From positions 192,001-256,000 of the forward strand of contig CAWCDG010000003.1 of the NCBI GenBank assembly GCA_963794325.1: a stretch of DNA of 64,000 bases, given 5' to 3'. The stretch comes from an uncultured delta proteobacterium (lineage in GTDB: Bacteria > Desulfobacterota > Binatia > Binatales > Binataceae). Positions within the stretch are counted from its first letter, which is position 1, and every line of letters starts with the position of its first letter. Below are positions 6,751 to 21,293 of this stretch, one piece after another. The position numbers and the translations under genes were made by a program. The notes under the pieces are model-generated. The model did no database searches. It was not told the DNA's origin and saw only the letters and a list, made by a program, of their open reading frames with translations.

Positions 6751-8052
6751 GTGAAATCTCCCGTAATCGGCGGCGACTTGGATCCTGCGTCGAGTCCGGG
6801 CGTGGCCGGCGCGAACGGCTCCCCGCCTCCAAACCGGGAGGGGGCTTTCATCGGCGGGTTAAGAGAGGCCAGCTGGATCAATTCCGAGCGCATCCGCGTT
6901 TACGCCCGTATGCTCTGTGCGTGCTACCTGGCACTTTTCGTGGCCTGGTTGGTACTGAGGCCGGGCGGAATCCTGGCGACCTTGCAACCGGTCGGTGGCG
7001 ACTTTCCACCTTATTGGGCAGCTTCTTCGCTGGCGCTGCGCGGACATCCTGCGGCGGTGTACGATCACCGAAGCTGGACGCCGTCGAGAAAGCGGTGATG
7101 AGGGGCAAAGGTCCGGGCTTCCAGCCATTCTTGTAGTCCGCCCATATTCCTCGTGATAGTGCTCCCGCTCGCGATGCTTCCGTACAATGGCGCGCTGATC
7201 GCGTGGACGCTGGTCGGGGTGGCGGCCTATCTAATCGTAGTGCGGAAGATCGCGCCTGAACGCGATACGCTCTGGGTCGCTCTCGCATTTCCAGGCGCCC
7301 TGCTAACTATTCTCGACGGACAGAACGGCCTGATAACCGCGGCGTTGTTCGGAGGCGGATTATTGCTGCTGGAACGCCGCCCGTGGATCGCTGGCGCGCT
7401 GTTCGGACTCCTATGCTACAAGCCGCAGTTCGGTATCCTGTTACCTGTGGCTTTGGTAGCAGGGCGCCAATGGCGAGCTGCTACCGCCGCGGCGCTGGTG
7501 GTGTCCGCGTTGGTGGTACTCTCGGCCGCGTTGTTCGGGATGCAGACCTGGCGAGCGTTCATGGACGGCATCCCGTTAGCGACCCACAGCATGATGGGTC
7601 AAGGCGACGTCGGATTCGGCAAGCTTCAGAGCATCTTCGGCGCGGCGAGACAGTGGGGTGCATCGGCCGCGGTCGGTTACGCGATGCAAGCAATTGTCGG
7701 CTTGCTCACGGCGGGCGCGGTGCTCTGGATCTGGCTCAAGTCTGGCAGATTTCCAGCCAAAGCCGCGGCGTTGGTCACTGGAACCCTGCTGGTCACGCCG
7801 TATCTGCTCGACTACGACCTGGTGCTGCTGGCGCTGCCCATAGCGTGGCTGTCGTGGGACGCGATGAACTCGGGTTTCCTCCCATTGGAAAAATCGATCT
7901 TGTTTCTCATATGGTTGTTTCCACTGTTCGCCCGAGCGCTGAGCCTGCTCGCGTCGTTGCCGCTGACGCCATTGCTGCTCGCGCTGCTGATGGTTGCCAT
8001 CGTCCGGCGCAGCTCGGTGGTAACGAGTCCCGCCAGCATATCGACTGAGTAA
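6751..8052 (+). pseudogene. Glycosyltransferase family 87 / DUF2029 membrane protein, interrupted by two frameshifts (possibly sequencing errors)
   Basis: GGDFPPYWAAS...AVYD in ORF 6751-7098; frame shifts near 7068 and near 7135 (ttgtagtccgccc where F-L-Y-P-P is expected); continues with DGQNG, YKPQFG, PYLLDYDL in ORF 7153-8052. Confidence 0.75.
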
Positions 8053-8112
8053 CAACGAAGGTGCATGCAGGCGACCATGCACTATCGTGATCCTGAATCA
8101 GATTACAAACCG

Positions 8113-8848
8113 TCAAGGTTTTTTTTGCGCCACCAGCAACAGCGAGACGCCGAAAGGCACAGAGAAGTGGCCGAGCGCATACCGCTCGCTCGATGAACAC
8201 GGTTCGCAGGAGCGAATTGACAAAGCCGGAGTGGGCGCGGAGGTCGTGCTCATGCTGCGGGCTCGATTTGCGCAAACGGCCCAGCAGACGTCCCGCCGCG
8301 ATCACCGGAAATAACAGGAAGTTGTAGTAACTGAGATAAGCTACGGCATAGCCGGAGCGCTCGAAAAGCGCGCGCAGATCGCTCGCTACATACCGTCGTT
8401 GGTGGTGGTGCGTGACGTCATGCGAGCTCCACAGCCAGGAGAACGCGGGGACGGTCGCCAGCAGCCACCGCCCGGCTTAGCCGATCGCGAAGAGCGACTA
8501 GCGCTTCCTGATCGCGATCGAGATGCTCCAAAACATCGGTCATCACGAACAAATCGAAGCGGACACTCTCGAACGGAATTCGATCGGGCAGTTGGCCCGG
8601 CTCGACAATCGCGGTTCTTCTCGCGCTGGAAAATCTGCATGCCTCGAGGTCGGAGTCCATCGCGTAGACCTCGCCAAGCGAGCTAACATCGCGAGGTTGC
8701 CGCCAGTGCCGCAGCCCGGCTCGAGAATGCGGGCGCCCGTGGACAAGCCCAGGCGCGACAGTGCGCTTCCGACAATCGCCCGGCGGGAACAAAACCACCA
8801 GTGACTGTCTTCAACTCGCGCCATCAGCGGATAGAGATTGGAGTCCAC
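8113..8848 (-). pseudogene. Class I SAM-dependent methyltransferase, multiple frameshifts
   Basis: Fragments in different frames: EDSHWWF..RR, ILEPGCGTGGN, DVLEHLD, VPAFSWLWSSHDVTHHHQRRY, PFGVSLLLVAQKKP*. Confidence 0.75.
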
Positions 8849-8851
8849 GCG

Positions 8852-9816
8852 TCAGGTGCGATTTTCGTACTGATCGAAGCCGTGCGTCTCGCGCAAAAGA
8901 TAGAGGGGACGGTGTTTGACCTCGGTGTAGACCCGGCCCAGATATTCGCCGATGACGCCCAGAGTGATGAGTTGAATGCCGGCCAGAAACAACACGACCA
9001 CCATCAACGAGGTGTAGCCGGGAACGTCGATTCCGCGCACCAGCTTGAGCAGCGCGAGAAAAATTGCGTAGGTAAAGGCGAGCAATGAGATGACGACTCA
9101 CGTAGCTGCAGATCTCCAGCGACAACGAAGAACAAGCGACCCAGAGTGCACAATTCCAATGCGGCAGTCCTCCACGGCTCGGCCGGCAGCGCGCCTTCGT
9201 CAAAGCGAATCGATCGCGAAGCCGAGCAGGCGAACAGTCCTTTCATGAATCGCAACGTTGGGGAGCCGTAGCAGCGCATGACCACGCCGGTCAGCAGACG
9301 GAAATCTCCCGCGTTGGGCGGAATCGGAACCTCGGACACGGCGTCAAACAGACGATAGAACACGCTGGCGGTGAGCCGCTTGACGAGTCCGTCGCCAGGC
9401 CGCGCATGCCGGGTTGCATACACCACATCGTAGCCAAGGCGCCACTGCGCCATCATCTCTTCGATCAGCTCGGGGGGATCCTGCAAGTCACAGTCAATCG
9501 GGATGATTGCCGCGCCGCAGCTATGCTCCATGCCTGCGCTGAGCGCCACTTCTTTGCCGAAGTTGCGAGAGAGGCTTAAGATTTTGATCCGAGGGTCCTG
9601 GACCCGCTGTTCGAGCAGGCGGGCTAGCGTCTCATCCGTGCTCCCATCATCGACGCAGATCACTTCGTAGCTGACCGCCAACCCTTCGAGCACCGCGAGC
9701 AGCCGCCGGAAGAACTCATCGAGGTTGGCGGCCTCGCTATGAATCGGGCCTACGATCGAGAGTTTGACCCCCGATTCTCCCAACTGCTTTGCGGATGTGG
9801 ATCTGTTGCGCCGCAA
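8852..9816 (-). pseudogene. GtrB/YfdH-like GT2 polyprenol-phosphate glycosyltransferase, disrupted by several small deletions
   Basis: VDDGSTD, LSRNFGKEVALSAG, DCDLQDPP, GDFRLL, RFMKGLF, then in another frame PGYTSLM...GVIGEYLGRVYTEVKHRPLY. Confidence 0.8.
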
Positions 9817-11572: not shown

Positions 11573-12376
11573 CTACACGCGCCGTGCGACGAACCGTGCC
11601 TGAGCTATCTTGCCCGCGCGCGCCATCTCGTGGAGAAAGCGAAACCCATCGACCAGTGTCTCCAGGAGTTCCGCGCGGAACGCGAGGGTTCGCAACACGT
11701 CATAAGTGAGTTGCATCTCGATCATCTTGAGGTACAAGTCGAAATGCGAAGCGAACCGCCTAGTGTCTTCCGCGACGCGCACCTCGCAGCCGCTTGCCGT
11801 CAGCAGCTTGGCGTAGCCTGCAATATCCTCGACGTTCGCGATCGTCATCATCCCAAGGAAGCGCTGCGCCTCGGCGTCGTTCAGTCCCGCCGGCCCTTCA
11901 ACCCAGTCCGTGAACGCGATCACGCCTCCGGGGCGAACGATGCGTGCCGTCTCCGCAATCAACCTTGGCTTGTCAGCGACGTAGCACCACGCATCCTCGC
12001 TCCATACGAAATCCGCGCTGGCCGAGGGCAGGCCGCTCTGACAGGCGTCAGCGTGCACTAACCGGATCGTATCGTCCAGACCTTCTTCATGAGTCAGCCG
12101 CCGCCCGCGCTCGACCACGGCCTCGGTCGCATCGACGCCCACTATCGACGCGACGCCTCGGAAGCGAACCAGGAAACGCATTCCAGCGCCGTTGCAGCAG
12201 CAGAGATCGACCCCGCTCGATCCGGCCGCGATTCCCGCCCGTTCGGCCAGATCAATCGACGCTTTCATTCCTCCGATGTGAAGTTGCTGTCCAAACACCA
12301 GTTGCATGAAATCGCCCTGCGTACCGCTGTACACCGCGACGACATCCGCCAACCCGACACCTCTAATGGACTTCAC
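11573..12376 (-). CDS. Class I SAM-dependent methyltransferase (sarcosine/dimethylglycine-MT-like), Cys-rich motif I
   Basis: QLHIGG, VDLCCCNGAG, GVDAT, ADA, DFVWSEDAWCY, VRPGG..AFTDW; GTGA overlap with arsM stop. Confidence 0.8.
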   Translation of the reverse strand: MKSIRGVGLADVVAVYSGTQGDFMQLVFGQQLHIGGMKASIDLAERAGIAAGSSGVDLCCCNGAGMRFLVRFRGVASIVGVDATEAVVERGRRLTHEEGLDDTIRLVHADACQSGLPSASADFVWSEDAWCYVADKPRLIAETARIVRPGGVIAFTDWVEGPAGLNDAEAQRFLGMMTIANVEDIAGYAKLLTASGCEVRVAEDTRRFASHFDLYLKMIEMQLTYDVLRTLAFRAELLETLVDGFRFLHEMARAGKIAQARFVARRV

Positions 12377-13176
12377 GGCTTGCGCGCTCGCACGAATGCG
12401 CTCATGAACTTGCCGTCCGCCATCTGGACGATTCTCTCCACGCTTTTGTTGTCCCCGAACAATGCCTTCGCGTCAGCCGCGGTGTAGATTCGCGTCGGCT
12501 CGACGTCGATCTGTTCGAATCCCGCCGCCCCGAGCTTCGCGCGATACTCGGATTCCTCCAGTGCGCCCGCGATACATCCGGCCCACAACTCGACGCTGCG
12601 GCGGACGTCCGCCGGCATCTCGCCGCGCACCACGATATCCGAAACTGCGAATCGCCCGCCCGGCTTGAGCACCCGGAAAGCCTCGCGCAGCACCCGGTCC
12701 TTGTCGGTCGATAGATTGACCACGCAGTTCGAGATAATCACATCGACGGAATTTTCCGGCAGCGGAATATACTCGATCTCGCCTTTCAGAAATTCGACAT
12801 TCTGGACGCCCGCTTTGCGCTGGTTGTCGCGTGCGAGTGCGAGCATCTCGTCGGTCATGTCCAGTCCGTAGGCCTTGCCGGTTGGTCCTACTCTCCGCGC
12901 CGAGAGGATCACGTCGATCCCGCCGCCCGATCCAAGATCGAGCACCGTCTCGCCCGGCTTCAGCTCGGCAAGTGCGGTCGGATTCCCGCATCCGAGCGAT
13001 GCTGCAAGCGCCGCGGCTGGGATCGACTCTTTCTCTCCGTCGGCGTAGAGATTCGACGTGATCGGGTTGATCGCAGGTGCCGCGGTACCGCAGCACGCGC
13101 CGCCCTGGTTTGCGACACGAGTCGCCGCTTGCGCGTACTCCTTCCTGACCGTCTCCCTTATCGATTCATTGCTCAT
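12373..13176 (-). CDS. arsM: Arsenite S-adenosylmethionine methyltransferase
   Basis: N-terminal ACCG, SLGCGNPTALA, LDLGSGGGID, ISNCVVNLS, WAGCIAGAL (conserved ArsM cysteines); RBS GGAGGT before ATG 13176. Confidence 0.93.
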   Translation of the reverse strand: MSNESIRETVRKEYAQAATRVANQGGACCGTAAPAINPITSNLYADGEKESIPAAALAASLGCGNPTALAELKPGETVLDLGSGGGIDVILSARRVGPTGKAYGLDMTDEMLALARDNQRKAGVQNVEFLKGEIEYIPLPENSVDVIISNCVVNLSTDKDRVLREAFRVLKPGGRFAVSDIVVRGEMPADVRRSVELWAGCIAGALEESEYRAKLGAAGFEQIDVEPTRIYTAADAKALFGDNKSVERIVQMADGKFMSAFVRARKP

Positions 13177-13201
13177 GGTAACCTCCAATATTTCGATCCA
13201 G

Positions 13202-13756
13202 TTAGATTGATGCATTCCGCGCGATTGCATTCGAAGAAGGCGTCAGCGCGAGACGTCGATGCCATCGATTCAGAGCGTTGAGTATCAGCGGGACTCCGAT
13301 CGCGCTGGGTATTAGCCAGTACGCAACGTGCGGAAGATCCCTCCACAGCGGCAGGTTCTTACCGTTATCCACGTAAAACGCGGTGAACATCAGAATGTAC
13401 GACACGCCCATCCCGCTAACATGAAAGTCGACCCATCGATGCCACAACTGTCGCCGCGCGAGACGACCGACGTGAGCCGCCGCAAAGGAAAGTGCGCCGA
13501 GAATAAACAGGTAATAGTCCTGAGCCCATCGCATCGCGGCCAGCATCGACGCGGTCGCAAACAGCGCGCAGAGGCTCCAGTAGTACAAAGTCCCGGATCG
13601 CGGATGCCGCCCGCGGCGTTTTGTACTCAGCATGGCGACGACTCCGAGAACCACGCACTCCAGGCCGAGCAGGACGTGAATACTCAACACACCGATGAAG
13701 ACCGGAGAGTCCGACGGCAGCGGGAATCCACCGAATGTTTTCAAGGTGGCGTCCAT
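13202..13756 (-). CDS. DUF2306-like membrane protein in ars operon
   Basis: Five TM segments with H..G, KRRGRH..SG..Y, H..GMG.SY..M.TAF.VDN motifs; ATG immediately after arsR stop. Confidence 0.65.
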   Translation of the reverse strand: MDATLKTFGGFPLPSDSPVFIGVLSIHVLLGLECVVLGVVAMLSTKRRGRHPRSGTLYYWSLCALFATASMLAAMRWAQDYYLFILGALSFAAAHVGRLARRQLWHRWVDFHVSGMGVSYILMFTAFYVDNGKNLPLWRDLPHVAYWLIPSAIGVPLILNALNRWHRRLALTPSSNAIARNASI

Positions 13757-13757
13757 T

Positions 13758-14087
13758 TCACTTCTTGCCACTGGCGGAGCGCCTGGGCGCCGCGCCGAGA
13801 GTCGTGTGAAGCTCGGCGCAGCAGTCTTCGGTCATGAACCGGATGAGTTTCGCAGTCTTGGCCCAATCGATTGCGTAATAGATAAATCGTCCCGAGCGAC
13901 GCGCCGTCAGCAGACCGCATCGCGTTAATGCATCGAGGTGATGTGATAACGTTGAACCCGGCATCCGGACGCGGCGCTTGATCTCGTCGACGCATTTCCC
14001 CTGCGGCCCGGCCCGGACCAGCAGCCGAAAGATCTCGAGGCGGTCCTTCTGCCCGAGCGCGTTAAATTGTTCGACGTAAGCTTTCAC
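13758..14087 (-). CDS. arsR: ArsR/SmtB family repressor with C-terminal Cys pair
   Basis: ALGQKDRLEIFRLLVRAGPQG, STLSHHL..L...GL, GRFIYY, C-terminal LIRFMTEDCC. Confidence 0.9.
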   Translation of the reverse strand: MKAYVEQFNALGQKDRLEIFRLLVRAGPQGKCVDEIKRRVRMPGSTLSHHLDALTRCGLLTARRSGRFIYYAIDWAKTAKLIRFMTEDCCAELHTTLGAAPRRSASGKK

Positions 14088-14089
14088 TA

Positions 14090-14109
14090 CGACAATACTA
14101 GTATTGTCG
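14090..14109. promoter_or_regulatory. Perfect 20-bp palindrome, probable ArsR operator overlapping the -10 box
   Basis: CGACAATACTAGTATTGTCG is self-complementary, ends 2 bp from the arsR GTG and contains TAGTAT 7 nt upstream of the start codon. Confidence 0.8.
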
Positions 14110-16801: not shown

Positions 16802-19800
16802 ATGCCCACTGCGCTCGACGATTTCCATCCCAGTGTTCGCGCATGGTTCGAGCGGCGCTTCGATGCGCCGTCGCGCGCGCAGGAGCTCGGCTGGCCGGTT
16901 ATCGGCGCCGCAAACGATGCAGTCGGGTACGACGTTTTGCTTTGCGCGCCGACTGGCAGCGGCAAGACGCTCGCCGCCTTCATGTGGGCGATCAACGGTC
17001 TCGTGCTCGACGCCGCGAGCGATCAGCTCCGTGACGAAGTCTCAGTCCTTTACGTTTCCCCGCTGAAGGCGCTCGCCAACGACATCCGCCTCAATCTCGA
17101 GGAGCCGCTCAACGGCGTCCGCGACGTCGGCGCCGAGTCGGGCCTGGATCTCTCGCGCATCCGCGCCGGCCTTCGCACCGGCGACACCTCTGCGAGCGAG
17201 CGCACTGCGATGCTCCGTCGGCCGCCGCATATTCTCGTCACGACCCCCGAGTCGCTGTTTATCCTGCTGACCTCGCCCAAGTTCCGCGAGAAGCTCGCCG
17301 GTGTCCGCCACGTGATCGTCGATGAGCTCCACGCGCTCGCGGGCAACAAGCGCGGTGCACATCTCGCGCTGACGCTGGAGCGTCTCGAACGCTTCGTGAG
17401 CAGTCGTGGGAATGCGCGCCCGAATCGAATCGGCTTGTCGGCCACCTTGAATCCAATCGAAAAGCTTGCGGGATTCCTGGCCGGCTACGATGTAGCCAGC
17501 GACAACTCGCGCACGCCGCGTCCAATCAAAATAGTTCGCGCTGACGACCGCGTTCGCGCGATGGATCTCCAGGTCATCGCGCCGGGGCCCGAGCTTGGGC
17601 CGCTGGCCACCCATCCGCATTGGGAGGCGATGTACGACGAAGTCGCGCGCCTCATCGGCGAGCATCGCACGACCCTCGTGTTCACGCTGAGCCGCCGCCA
17701 TGCGGAGCGCGTCGCCATCAATCTGCAGAAGCGGCTCGGGGCTGACGCCGTGATGGCGCATCATGGCAGCCTCGCTCGCAGTGAGCGATTACTTGCCGAG
17801 CAACGCCTCAAGCGCGGCGAGTTGAAAGCGATCGTCGCGACCGCTTCGCTCGAACTCGGCATCGACGTCGGCGCGGTCGATCTCGTCTGCCAGCTCGATA
17901 CGCCCAAATCCATTTCAGCCGCGATTCAGCGCATCGGCCGCTCCGGACACAGCCTCGGCGCCACCCCCAAGGGCCGCTTCTTCGCGCTCACCACCGACGA
18001 CTTGCTCGAATGCGGTGCTGCGGTGCGCGCGATTCGCCATGGCCATCTCGACGAAGTGGAAATCCCGATGGGATGCATCGATATTGTCGCGCAGCAAATC
18101 GTCGCAATCGCCGCTGAGGATGAGGAAATCTCCGAGGCCGATCTCCTACGCGTTATCCGCCGTGCATACAACTTCGCCGATCTCGACGCCGCCAAACTGC
18201 GTCATCTCCTCGAACAGCTCTCCGCCGAATTGCCCGAGCGGATAATGGGTGCGGCGCCGAAAATTTTCTTCGATCGTGTCAACGCTCGCGTCCGCCCGCG
18301 CCGCTCCGCACGATTGTCGGTGATCACTTCCGGCGGAACGATTCCCGAAGCGGGCAACTACGATGTCGTGATCGAATCCGAAGGACGCAAAGTCGGCGAC
18401 GTCGAAGAGGACTTTGCGCAGGAGTCGTCGCGCGGCGACGTTTTTTCGCTGGGCTCGATGCCCTGGCAGATTCAGCGCATCTCGCGCGGACGCCTGATGG
18501 TCGAGCCGGCGCCCGGGATGGCGCCGACGCTGCCGTTCTGGATCACCGAGGCGGGCGGCCGCTCGCCTGCGATGTCGGCCGAGATAAGCGATCTGCGCCA
18601 CGAGATTTGGAATCGCATCCAGCGCAACGAATCAGCCGAAGACTGGCTGATGACCGAATGCGCGATGAGCGAGCGTGCGGCCACGCAAGCCGCCGACTAC
18701 GTACGTCGCGGAGTCGAGGCGCTCACTGCGATTCCCGACGCGAAGACCGTCGTCATCGAGCGCTTCTTCGACGGCCTCGGCGGTACCCAAATCGTCATCC
18801 ACACGCCGTTCGGTATCCGCTTGAACCGCGGCCTTGGCCTCGCGATTCGAAAGCGCCTGTGCCAGTCGTTCGATTTCGAAATCCAGGCGTCCGCGATCGA
18901 CGATGGCGTGCTGCTCGCGCTGAATTCGCGCCACAGTTTTCCGCTCGACACTCTCTTCAGCATGTTGAAGGCGCGCAACGCTCGCGACGTGCTCGTGCAG
19001 GCTCTGCTGGCGGCGCCGATGTTCGAAGTGCGCTTCCGTCATGTCGCGACCCGCGCGCTTGCGGTCATGCGCTCGTCGCGCGGCAAGAGAGTTCCCGCGT
19101 GGATTCAGCGCCTGCGCTCGCAGGAGCTTTTGTCGTCGATTTTTCCCGGGCAGCAAGCATGCTTCGAGAACCGTCCGGGCGCGATCGAGCTGCCGGACCA
19201 TTTCGTGATCGACGAAACGATCCGCGAGTGCCTCGAGGAATCCACCGATTTGCCGCGCACGATTCAACTGCTTGAGGGAATCGAGAGCGGCGCGATTCGC
19301 ACTGTCGCGGTCGATGCGATCGCGCCATCGGTGTTTGCGCATCGCTTGTTGCTCGCGTGGGACTACTCGTTCCTCGACGACGGCGAGCGCGCCAATCGCC
19401 GCTCGCGCACGGTCACGATGAATCGTGGCATGGCCGAGGACGTTTTCCGCAAAGAGGATCTTTCCGATTTGCTCTCGGCCGATGCGGTCGAAAGCGTCGT
19501 TGCCGAAGTCACGGGCCGCGCCGCTGGACGCAAGCCGCGATCGCGCGACGAGCTGTTCGAACTGATCAAGGCGCACGGCTCGCTGACCTTGTCCGAGATC
19601 GAAGAACGGGTAGACGAGGGTGCGCGCGCGATGATCACTGAGCTGGACGCGGAGGGCAGGCTCGCGCGGGTCAGCGTCAGCAGTCGAATCAGTCGAAAGA
19701 ATTATTGCAACCGAAGATCAACCGCTCTTCGCTGCTGCGTATGCAAGTGCTTCGACCGAGAGAGACGCGGCGCGTATCGAACTCGTCCGGCGCGCAATGA

Positions 19801-21293
19801 AAACCTGCGGACCGACCACCGCCGCTGAAGTCGCGGCGCGATTGCGTCTCAGGGAATCGGACGTCGAGCAAAATCTCGCTTCACTGGAGGGGCAGGGCGC
19901 AATCTTCCGCGGACACTTCACGCGCTCCGACAGTATTCAGTGGTGCGACCGCTACAACCTCGAGCGCATCCATCGGATGACCTTGGCGCGCGTGCGCGCC
20001 GAAATCGAGCCGTGCGCCGATCACGAGTACGCTAGTTTCCGCCTGCGATGGATGCATGTCGGCAGCACTGAGCTTCCCGCCGATCAGACCGGCGTGGCAA
20101 CGGTGCTCGATCAGCTTTCGGGAATCGCCGCGACCCCGGATCTCTGGGAGCATGCGATCCTGCCCGCGCGAATCGCCGGCTATCGTCCCGAGATGCTCGA
20201 CCTGGTTTGCATGAGCGGCCAGATGAAATGGGTCAGCGTGCCGGGAGAGAGCGTCGAAGATACGCCTCCAGTGAGCATCCCGTCGCGAGTCACCTTTATC
20301 CCGCGCAAGGCCAGCCTCTTCGTGCAGGGCAACGAATCCGCGGCTGAAGACCCGAAGGAACAAGCAGTGTTGGAGGCTCTGGGAGCCGCCGGAGCGCAAT
20401 ACCTCGACGAGATTGCCGAGCGCGCGAACGTCTCCGAGCGCGACGCGCTGTCCGCGCTCTGGCAGATGGCCGCGGCAGGACGCGTCAGCAACGACAACTT
20501 CGCGCCGCTCCGGATGTTCTCGGACGACCGCGGCGCCGAGCGCGCGCTCGAGTCCGTCGCGCGCCGCCCGACGAGTCGCCACGACGCCGCGGTCCGCGCG
20601 CGCCTCAAGTCCAGCCTCGCCGGCCGCTGGTCTCTAATCCGCGCCGCTGAAACTCCAGTTGTTGGCGCCGACGAAACCCGCGAGCTCGCGCTCAAGCTGC
20701 TCGAACGTAACGGAATTCTCGCACGCGAAATGCTCACTCTCGAATCGACGCACATCTCGTGGAGCGAAATCTCATTTGCGCTTAGACGGCTCGAATACGG
20801 CGGCGCGATTCGCCGCGGATGGTTCGTGCGCTCGCTTTCCGGCGAGCAGTACGCGCTGCCGGAAGCCGTCGAGATGCTGCACACCGCGCGCACTCTGATT
20901 CCCGCGCGCGAGAAGCCCGTGGCTCTAAGCGCGATCGATCCCGCCAACCCGTACGGTGCGCTCATCCCCGGATGCGGCATCGCACGCGAGGCCGGCAACG
21001 TGATCGTGCTGCGCGCGGGCCGCGTCATCGCCGGATTGCAGGGACGCGCGATGATCACCGGTAGCGACAACGAAAGCGCAGTTGACGACGAGAGTTTCGG
21101 CGCAGCAGTCGCCGCTCTCATGACGTTAAAGCCGCGTATCACCCTTGATTCAATCGACAGCGTCGCCGCGCTCGAATCGCCGCGAGTGGGAATCCTTGCC
21201 GCGATGCGCTTCCATTCCGATGGCCGCTCGCTCGTTTTCGACGGACTGCACGGTCCGGCGCCCGCGAAATCAAAGCGTGCAAATCTAAAGTGA
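16802..21293 (+). CDS. lhr: Lhr family DEAD/DEAH helicase, split by one frameshift near 19685 (ORFs 16802-19828 and 19797-21293)
   Basis: APTGSGKT, SPLKALAND, TTPESL, DELH, GLSAT, HHGSL, QRIGRSGH; C-terminal ORF with LAGRWSL, G.IRRGWF...GEQYALP, DPANPYG. Confidence 0.88.

Follow-up and report, generated by a model that had tools for sequence, protein, structure and literature searches.

ArsM is commonly taken to be the sole enzyme of microbial arsenic methylation, and surveys of arsM predict the release of methylarsenicals from soil. The closest described relatives of the locus reported here are arsR-arsM operons such as arsRMC of Arsenicibacter rosenii (PMC11868830; for this and all other papers cited, the accessible part of the paper is meant). 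We analysed a stretch of 64,000 nucleotides, hereafter the window, on contig CAWCDG010000003.1 of an uncultured member of the soil-dwelling family Binataceae, which contains an operon of this type. Like arsRMC, it has an ArsR repressor, a putative operator over its own promoter and a true ArsM. However, it additionally carries an unrelated class I S-adenosylmethionine (SAM) methyltransferase, here named MT2, as well as a DUF2306-like membrane protein gene, and no arsC lies within it. The pathways leading to arsinothricin (ArsL/ArsM) and arsenosugars (ArsM/ArsS) likewise combine ArsM with a second SAM-dependent enzyme, but in those pathways the partner of ArsM belongs to the radical SAM proteins (PMC12159101), which MT2 does not. 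No radical SAM enzyme forming C-As bonds was found in the window operon or among the recurring neighbours of the linked loci examined. The arrangement is a real and conserved form of the arsR-arsM operon, restricted to one lineage, in which arsM is joined by an uncharacterised accessory methyltransferase.

All genes of the operon lie on the minus strand, and coordinates are positions in the window. The arsR gene (13758..14087) encodes an ArsR/SmtB repressor of 109 amino acids (aa) that scores 70.2 against NF033788 (cut-off 55), and arsM (12373..13176) an arsenite methyltransferase of 267 aa that scores 364.7 against NF008823 (cut-off 263). MT2 (11573..12376), also 267 aa long, belongs to an unnamed family with the fold of phosphoethanolamine and sarcosine N-methyltransferases, and its start codon overlaps the arsM stop codon (GTGA). 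An earlier note on this DNA had described a palindrome, an arsR with Cys-Cys, a DUF2306-like gene, arsM and the overlapping MT2, and all of them lie where it had placed them, with the motifs VDLCCCNGAG and EDAWCY present in MT2. It was also right that the operon lacks arsB, acr3, arsC and arsH, as scans of open reading frames (ORFs) and scans with family models detected none of these among the operon ORFs or the scanned flanking genes. The note had further suggested that the operon is biosynthetic rather than a simple efflux operon, and here we depart from it. The host genome possesses a second ars operon consisting of arsR, a glyoxalase-type gene (presumably arsI-like), an arsC-like gene and acr3 (C4:1849795-1852237), and in three relatives (G198, G298, and G367) the arsR-arsM-MT2 operon itself adjoins arsC and acr3. 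Therefore, the lack of efflux genes in the operon reads as a division of labour and is no evidence for biosynthesis; moreover, most arsM genomes of the family were found without MT2.

The linkage was surveyed in 165 Binataceae genomes, of which 34 contain MT2 (42 loci) and 92 contain arsM; as these genomes are incomplete, an absence means "not found". An MT2 gene was counted as linked, by hand from coordinate tables, when it followed arsM in the same orientation at a distance of up to 3 kb; by this count the linkage exists at 32 of the 42 loci, in 28 of the 34 MT2-bearing genomes and in six genera. The order arsR-arsM-MT2 survives at least five chromosomal settings and varied inserts, namely the DUF2306-like gene, a TauD dioxygenase (two genomes), an alpha/beta hydrolase and a sulfite-oxidase-like pair. 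The DUF2306-like gene itself occurs in part of the operon copies only, and its position varies. For 21 linked loci the median pairwise ratio of non-synonymous to synonymous substitution rates (dN/dS) is 0.17 for MT2 and 0.13 for arsM (190 and 177 of 210 pairs, respectively, after dS filtering), and MT2 is thus under purifying selection. In two genomes (G251 and G418) the cluster contains MT2 twice. At the locus L123:4001-8899, a sulfite-oxidase-like molybdoenzyme and cytochrome c pair lies between two MT2 copies. No MT2 matches were found in plasmids or in viral contigs. A fusion of ArsM and MT2 was considered and rejected, as the fused frame seen in one genome (G014, locus L018) lacks the last arsM residues and is probably due to a frameshift; a search of longer proteins, which is a weak test, gave three matches, none of them ArsM-specifically named.

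The predicted model of MT2 is confident (pLDDT 95.9). Its close named homologues are from Candidatus Binatus and Binataceae, and it passes generic Pfam methyltransferase models only, with none of 22 NCBIfam matches above cut-off. MT2 shares 25% identity with ArsM over 116 residues and stays far below the ArsM models NF008823 (34.5 versus 263) and NF040539 of the arsinothricin ArsM (30.8 versus 240). Its structural matches, among them phosphoethanolamine and sarcosine/dimethylglycine N-methyltransferases, extend over the whole length with Z of 30-32 and a root-mean-square deviation (rmsd) of about 2. The top Foldseek match is a sarcosine/dimethylglycine methyltransferase, and comparison with 2o57 (TM 0.84, Z 30.3, rmsd 1.8 over 242 residues) places both in the same fold. 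The resemblance to these enzymes that the earlier note had seen in short motifs is therefore genuine for the fold, but it does not extend to the family, since MT2 scores 52.5 against NF041675 with a cut-off of 550. With the phosphoethanolamine N-methyltransferases (PMTs; PfPMT, AtPMT) and the sarcosine/dimethylglycine enzyme (2o57, NF041675), MT2 also shares the Asp after strand 4. However, identity to all of these is 17-24%, the His is replaced by Tyr with an adjacent Cys, and Arg/Lys are replaced by Met/Leu. In the HMMER alignment to 5wp4 the AtPMT1 residues H360, Y386, R404, Y406, and K472, which we take to act in catalysis and phosphate binding, correspond to Tyr132, Trp158, Met177, Phe, and Leu/Ile of MT2, respectively. 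MT2 thus lacks both the His after strand 4 and the Arg/Lys/Tyr pocket of phosphoethanolamine N-methyltransferases. All 207 sequences have Met177, Trp158, and Tyr132 at the R404, Y386, and H360 positions, and the arsM-linked copies carry Leu or Ile at that of K472. Because the PMT pocket positions hold Tyr, Trp, Met, Phe, and Leu/Ile, the alignment suggests a neutral, aromatic and sulfur-lined pocket that would suit neither a carboxylate nor a phosphate acceptor. The arsM-linked clade furthermore changes residues that are otherwise nearly fixed (W24 to F/M, M28 to F, K178 to T/M, E244 to G, also E25 and others), and the sister sequence L124, whose genome gave no arsM match, retains the old residues at those positions.

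The earlier note had drawn attention to the triple cysteine of MT2 as a possible sign of arsenic chemistry and had asked whether it is conserved. It is: C59-C60-C61 in the SAM-binding loop (motif I; 12194..12202) is kept in 116, 120, and 118 of 120 homologues at its three positions, and C60 and C61 each occur in 127 of 128 core sequences (a few rows being duplicates), in arsM-linked, orphan and selenium-cluster copies alike. The sister subfamily described below has C-S-A instead, keeping C59 only. In the segment E127-D-A-W-C-Y132 after strand 4 (11981..11998), all 207 sequences of core family and sister subfamily have W130 and Y132, and 205 of them have C131. The post-strand-4 Cys of ArsM (SNC motif) aligns to Asp128 of MT2, with Cys131 lying three residues further on, and the triple cysteine is out of register with the ArsM cysteines. 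An arsenic-specific triad is therefore rejected, the motif being family-wide and shared with orthologues in selenium clusters and orphan positions.

Outside the Binataceae, MT2 keeps different company. The relatives examined there are the best 80 of at least 568 genome loci, and no arsM, arsR, arsC or acr3 lies in their flanks. The ranking used a non-Binatia sequence and so favours Planctomycetota and Verrucomicrobiota. In two phylum draws of 301 genomes each, MT2 was present in 10 and 18 genomes, respectively, and in no case did an ars gene lie less than 1.5 kb away. The arsM linkage that the earlier note had proposed to survey thus holds within the family and was not found at the loci examined beyond it. 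Among the 76 non-Binatia loci of the 80, HGD-D-family genes are present at 69, a double-cubane reductase at 60 (NF040772 score 415.8 versus a cut-off of 350 for the one tested) and an activase at 45, together with SelD (29), SelB (18), SelA (15) and a protein read through a TGA codon (21). At least one selenium marker occurs at 44 of the 76 loci; for the 32 non-Binatia loci with long flanks the corresponding figures are 28 and 19. A selenocysteine tRNA (tRNA-Sec) was found at 3 of 48 scanned loci. Reductase or corrinoid genes accompany 13 of the 18 loci of the second phylum draw. The MT2 copies of other Binatia families are orphans; 7 of their 24 distinct loci have an SMR cation pump alongside, and such a pump also occurs at 3 of the 10 loci of the first draw.

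The nearest described systems to these clusters are the double-cubane/SelD neighbourhoods, the SAO system (bioRxiv 10.1101/2022.07.06.499078) and the type 1 mlp corrinoid clusters (PMC10418091), with which they share NF040772 reductases above cut-off, activases, SelD, SelA/B and sometimes corrinoid proteins. However, the accessible descriptions of the SAO and mlp systems contain no class I SAM methyltransferase and no arsM link (bioRxiv 10.1101/2022.07.06.499078; PMC10418091), and the ATP-binding cassette subunits of the MT2-orthologue clusters are below the SaoP, SaoA, and SaoX cut-offs. Likewise, neither the MT2 family nor its link to arsM is described in the accessible parts, supplements aside, of PMC13188914, bioRxiv 10.1101/2022.07.06.499078, PMC11868830, PMC12159101 and PMC10418091. 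A literature search for arsM with a downstream second methyltransferase in an ars operon returned none, most subscription papers being beyond its reach, and among the matches listed for arsenobetaine, tetramethylarsonium, Binatota and arsenosugars no title concerned MT2.

Three further observations concern the selenium clusters themselves. The TGA-read-through protein (L040:5242-5883, L027:5225-5881 and related) is a candidate for an undescribed selenoprotein with an N-terminal hydrophobic anchor and the motif YG-TGA-GGxC: 28 of 28 cluster ORFs end at the TGA and are followed by about 42 conserved residues, a hairpin is predicted 12-15 nt past the TGA in most of them, and neither an NCBIfam match at E 0.1 nor a credible Pfam match was found. 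At L167:2666-12778 and L078:6001-8430, SelD, double-cubane reductase, activase, methyltransferase and corrinoid protein stand in one run that also holds MtaA-like enzymes, a corrinoid reactivase and HGD-D genes. The cluster SelD at L032:4817-6541 has a C-terminal CMD/AhpD domain and a cysteine-rich N-terminal extension.

Next to the core family there is a sister subfamily, sampled here as the best 80 of at least 594 metagenome loci. Its methyltransferase is located behind a radical SAM/SPASM gene at 45 loci, and only in this subfamily is a radical SAM gene adjacent. At 24 loci it belongs to selenium/corrinoid clusters, which add a corrinoid protein and MtaA-like enzymes. Two closely related loci (L202:1009-6780 and L210) carry the methyltransferase and its upstream radical SAM/SPASM gene in an ars island with acr3, two arsC-like genes, an ArsP-like permease and arsR, which is a second, independent arsenic link. 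Genes resembling TIGR04282/04283, labelled by NCBI as arsenosugar biosynthesis glycosyltransferases, accompany the subfamily at 15 of the 80 loci and are above cut-off in the two tested. At L216:2-6798, L212, L199, and L233 the radical SAM/SPASM and methyltransferase pair stands with such TIGR04282/TIGR04283 glycosyltransferases, and its radical SAM protein has no named family above cut-off; the pair possibly represents an undescribed arseno- or seleno-sugar pathway. The wider MT2 family therefore recurs beside both arsenic and selenium genes. A tree built in quick mode from 112 sequences, with one half of the PVC loci included, places all 25 arsM-linked copies in one Binataceae clade (support 99) together with 8 unlinked copies of the family. 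This clade is nested among the Binatia orphans and, with weaker support, among the selenium-cluster copies, and MT2 is probably of selenium-cluster ancestry.

Regarding function, our best single guess, which we put forward tentatively and which retains the "final methylation" of the earlier note, is that MT2 finishes the methylation of ArsM products, presumably dimethylarsenite or trimethylarsine and possibly as far as tetramethylarsonium. As(III) or methylarsenite would release ArsR from the palindrome, and ArsM would then produce mono-, di- and trimethyl As(III). MT2 would move the SAM methyl group directly onto the lone pair of a small neutral methylarsenical, yielding trimethylarsine from dimethylarsenite or the tetramethylarsonium cation from trimethylarsine. 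Such a direct transfer would parallel the amine methylation carried out by enzymes of the same fold. The ancestors of MT2 probably methylated a methyl-selenium or methyl-sulfur compound, and MT2 would have been recruited once, in the Binataceae, with an altered pocket, leaving the efflux of inorganic arsenic to the separate acr3 operon. Speaking for this reading are the recurrent position of MT2 behind arsM, the purifying selection on it, its fold, the pocket with the nearly invariant Cys131 and the residues altered in the linked clade, and the metalloid genes around family members elsewhere (selenium genes, SMR pumps, and the arsenosugar-type genes and ars island of the sister subfamily).

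Several observations weigh against this reading. No ars gene lies beside core MT2 outside the Binataceae (0 of 76, 0 of 24, 0 of 10, and 0 of 18 loci), and even within the family 10 of the 42 MT2 loci are away from arsM and 64 of the 92 arsM genomes are without a linked MT2. As all linked copies form a single clade, the arsM link appears to be one recruitment followed by losses or moves, so that the 28 genomes are no independent evidence. The operon tolerates unrelated inserts such as the TauD dioxygenase, the alpha/beta hydrolase and the sulfite-oxidase-like pair, and the SMR pump is found with none of the arsM-linked MT2 copies examined. The same fold also carries out O- and C-methylation of natural products, AtmM, RebM, and MitM scoring just as high against MT2, and the pocket changes of the linked clade could be drift.

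It is possible, with a lower probability than arsenic methylation, that MT2 is still a selenium or sulfur (perhaps tellurium) methyltransferase that came under ArsR control as part of a general metalloid defence and does not act on arsenic-carbon compounds; its acceptor would be selenide, methylselenol, dimethylselenide or a small thiol. The MT2 orthologues heading the cluster of HGD-D, double-cubane reductase, SelD, SelB, SelA and TGA-read-through protein argue for this, and so do the sister clusters, since their corrinoid protein and MtaA-like enzymes form a module tied to methyl-selenium metabolism (PMC10418091, accessible part). Moreover, the core catalytic residues of arsenic-linked and selenium-cluster MT2 are identical, and the host genome has selA, selB, selD and tRNA-Sec. 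However, this selenocysteine machinery is all that the host has of the selenium cluster, as no double-cubane or HGD-D match was found in its genome; the pocket is altered in the arsM-linked clade, and a role in selenium metabolism needs no tight coupling to arsM.

We consider it unlikely that MT2 is a passenger, i.e., that in an ancestor of the family arsR-arsM landed ahead of an orphan methyltransferase whose substrate is an unrelated small molecule and that the block has since been inherited or moved jointly. A single origin of the link, the usual orphan state of MT2 in other Binatia families and the gain and loss of other genes in the operon would all be expected then, and in two genomes (L017 and L160) MT2 is kept at the chromosomal site of the window without arsR-arsM. 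But MT2 persists in six genera and at several chromosomal sites while the inserts vary, it is under purifying selection, and G251 and G418 hold two copies of it in one cluster.

A more specific form of the arsenic reading is quite unlikely as a whole. It states that MT2 caps volatile trimethylarsine as tetramethylarsonium and descends from a selenium-cluster enzyme making trimethylselenonium, or a related methyl-chalcogen onium compound, for the double-cubane reductase. The mammalian INMT/TEMT and the algal MTHB S-methyltransferases turn a neutral S or Se lone pair into an onium cation, and they are likened to MT2 by analogy alone, not by sequence. The completion of a betaine-type organoarsenical such as arsenobetaine from a dimethylarsinoyl-acetate-like precursor, also raised in the earlier note, is very improbable: the top Foldseek match would fit, as would the TauD-family dioxygenase that separates arsM from MT2 in two relatives (L146 and L157), but MT2 fails the NF041675 model, neither Arg nor Lys occurs at the examined pocket positions of the linked copies, the operon has no conserved gene, radical SAM or otherwise, that could supply the carboxymethyl arm, and most copies of the operon are without TauD.

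The regulator bears on the inducing arsenical. AfArsR binds As(III) through a C-terminal Cys-Cys and a third Cys six residues on, while a two-cysteine version of ArsR responds to methylarsenite only, SpArsR being of this MAs(III)-selective type (PMC11868830, accessible part). The window ArsR has the cysteines C32, C57, and C89-C90, of which C32 and C89-C90 are kept in 21 of 21 homologues; a Cys at the position of AfArsR Cys102, the third C-terminal Cys, is absent from all 21, so the site is not of the AfArsR type. The protein has Cys-Cys without Cys102, yet its additional invariant Cys32 may complete a three-Cys site and restore the third ligand. The ArsR of the second ars operon has Cys-Cys and a later Cys, unlike the window ArsR. 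Since their ArsR cysteines differ, the two operons of the host may sense different arsenicals.

The putative ArsR operator is a perfect 20-bp palindrome (14090..14109), the longest perfect one in the window, which stops 2 nt ahead of the arsR GTG and recurs in imperfect form upstream of arsR in 21 of 21 distinct homologues. A scan of the host genome with a pattern derived from these relatives gave no match elsewhere. A TAGTAT hexamer lies 7 nt ahead of the arsR start codon, and its position suggests that the arsR message may be leaderless; consensus scans found neither a sigma-70 promoter nor a minus-strand terminator. The membrane protein gene (13202..13756; 184 aa as called in the database) misses the Pfam threshold for DUF2306 (PF10067; 18.1 versus a gathering score of 31.6, E 0.003). 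As many of its homologues carry the Pfam DUF2306 mark and its Atlas neighbours bear the DUF2306 name, we call it DUF2306-like. A di-haem oxidoreductase gene (DHOR, PF06537; 14291-15850) is divergent from arsR and lies near the operon in a few relatives only. Several genes at 6751-9816 and 16802-21293 (judging from their translations, presumably glycosyltransferase-like, methyltransferase-like and helicase-like) look split by frame changes, possibly assembly errors.

MT2 is a candidate, open to direct testing, for an additional step in the arsenic chemistry of microbes. If it indeed acts on ArsM products, a change of end product by an accessory enzyme would alter how arsM surveys are read, arsM being present in 92 of the 165 Binataceae genomes, and MT2 would supply a gene for species such as tetramethylarsonium. 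As a small, soluble and confidently folded protein, MT2 furthermore gives a handle on the uncharacterised selenium/double-cubane cluster. Should the onium reading be true, one gene family would join microbial arsenic and selenium methylation.

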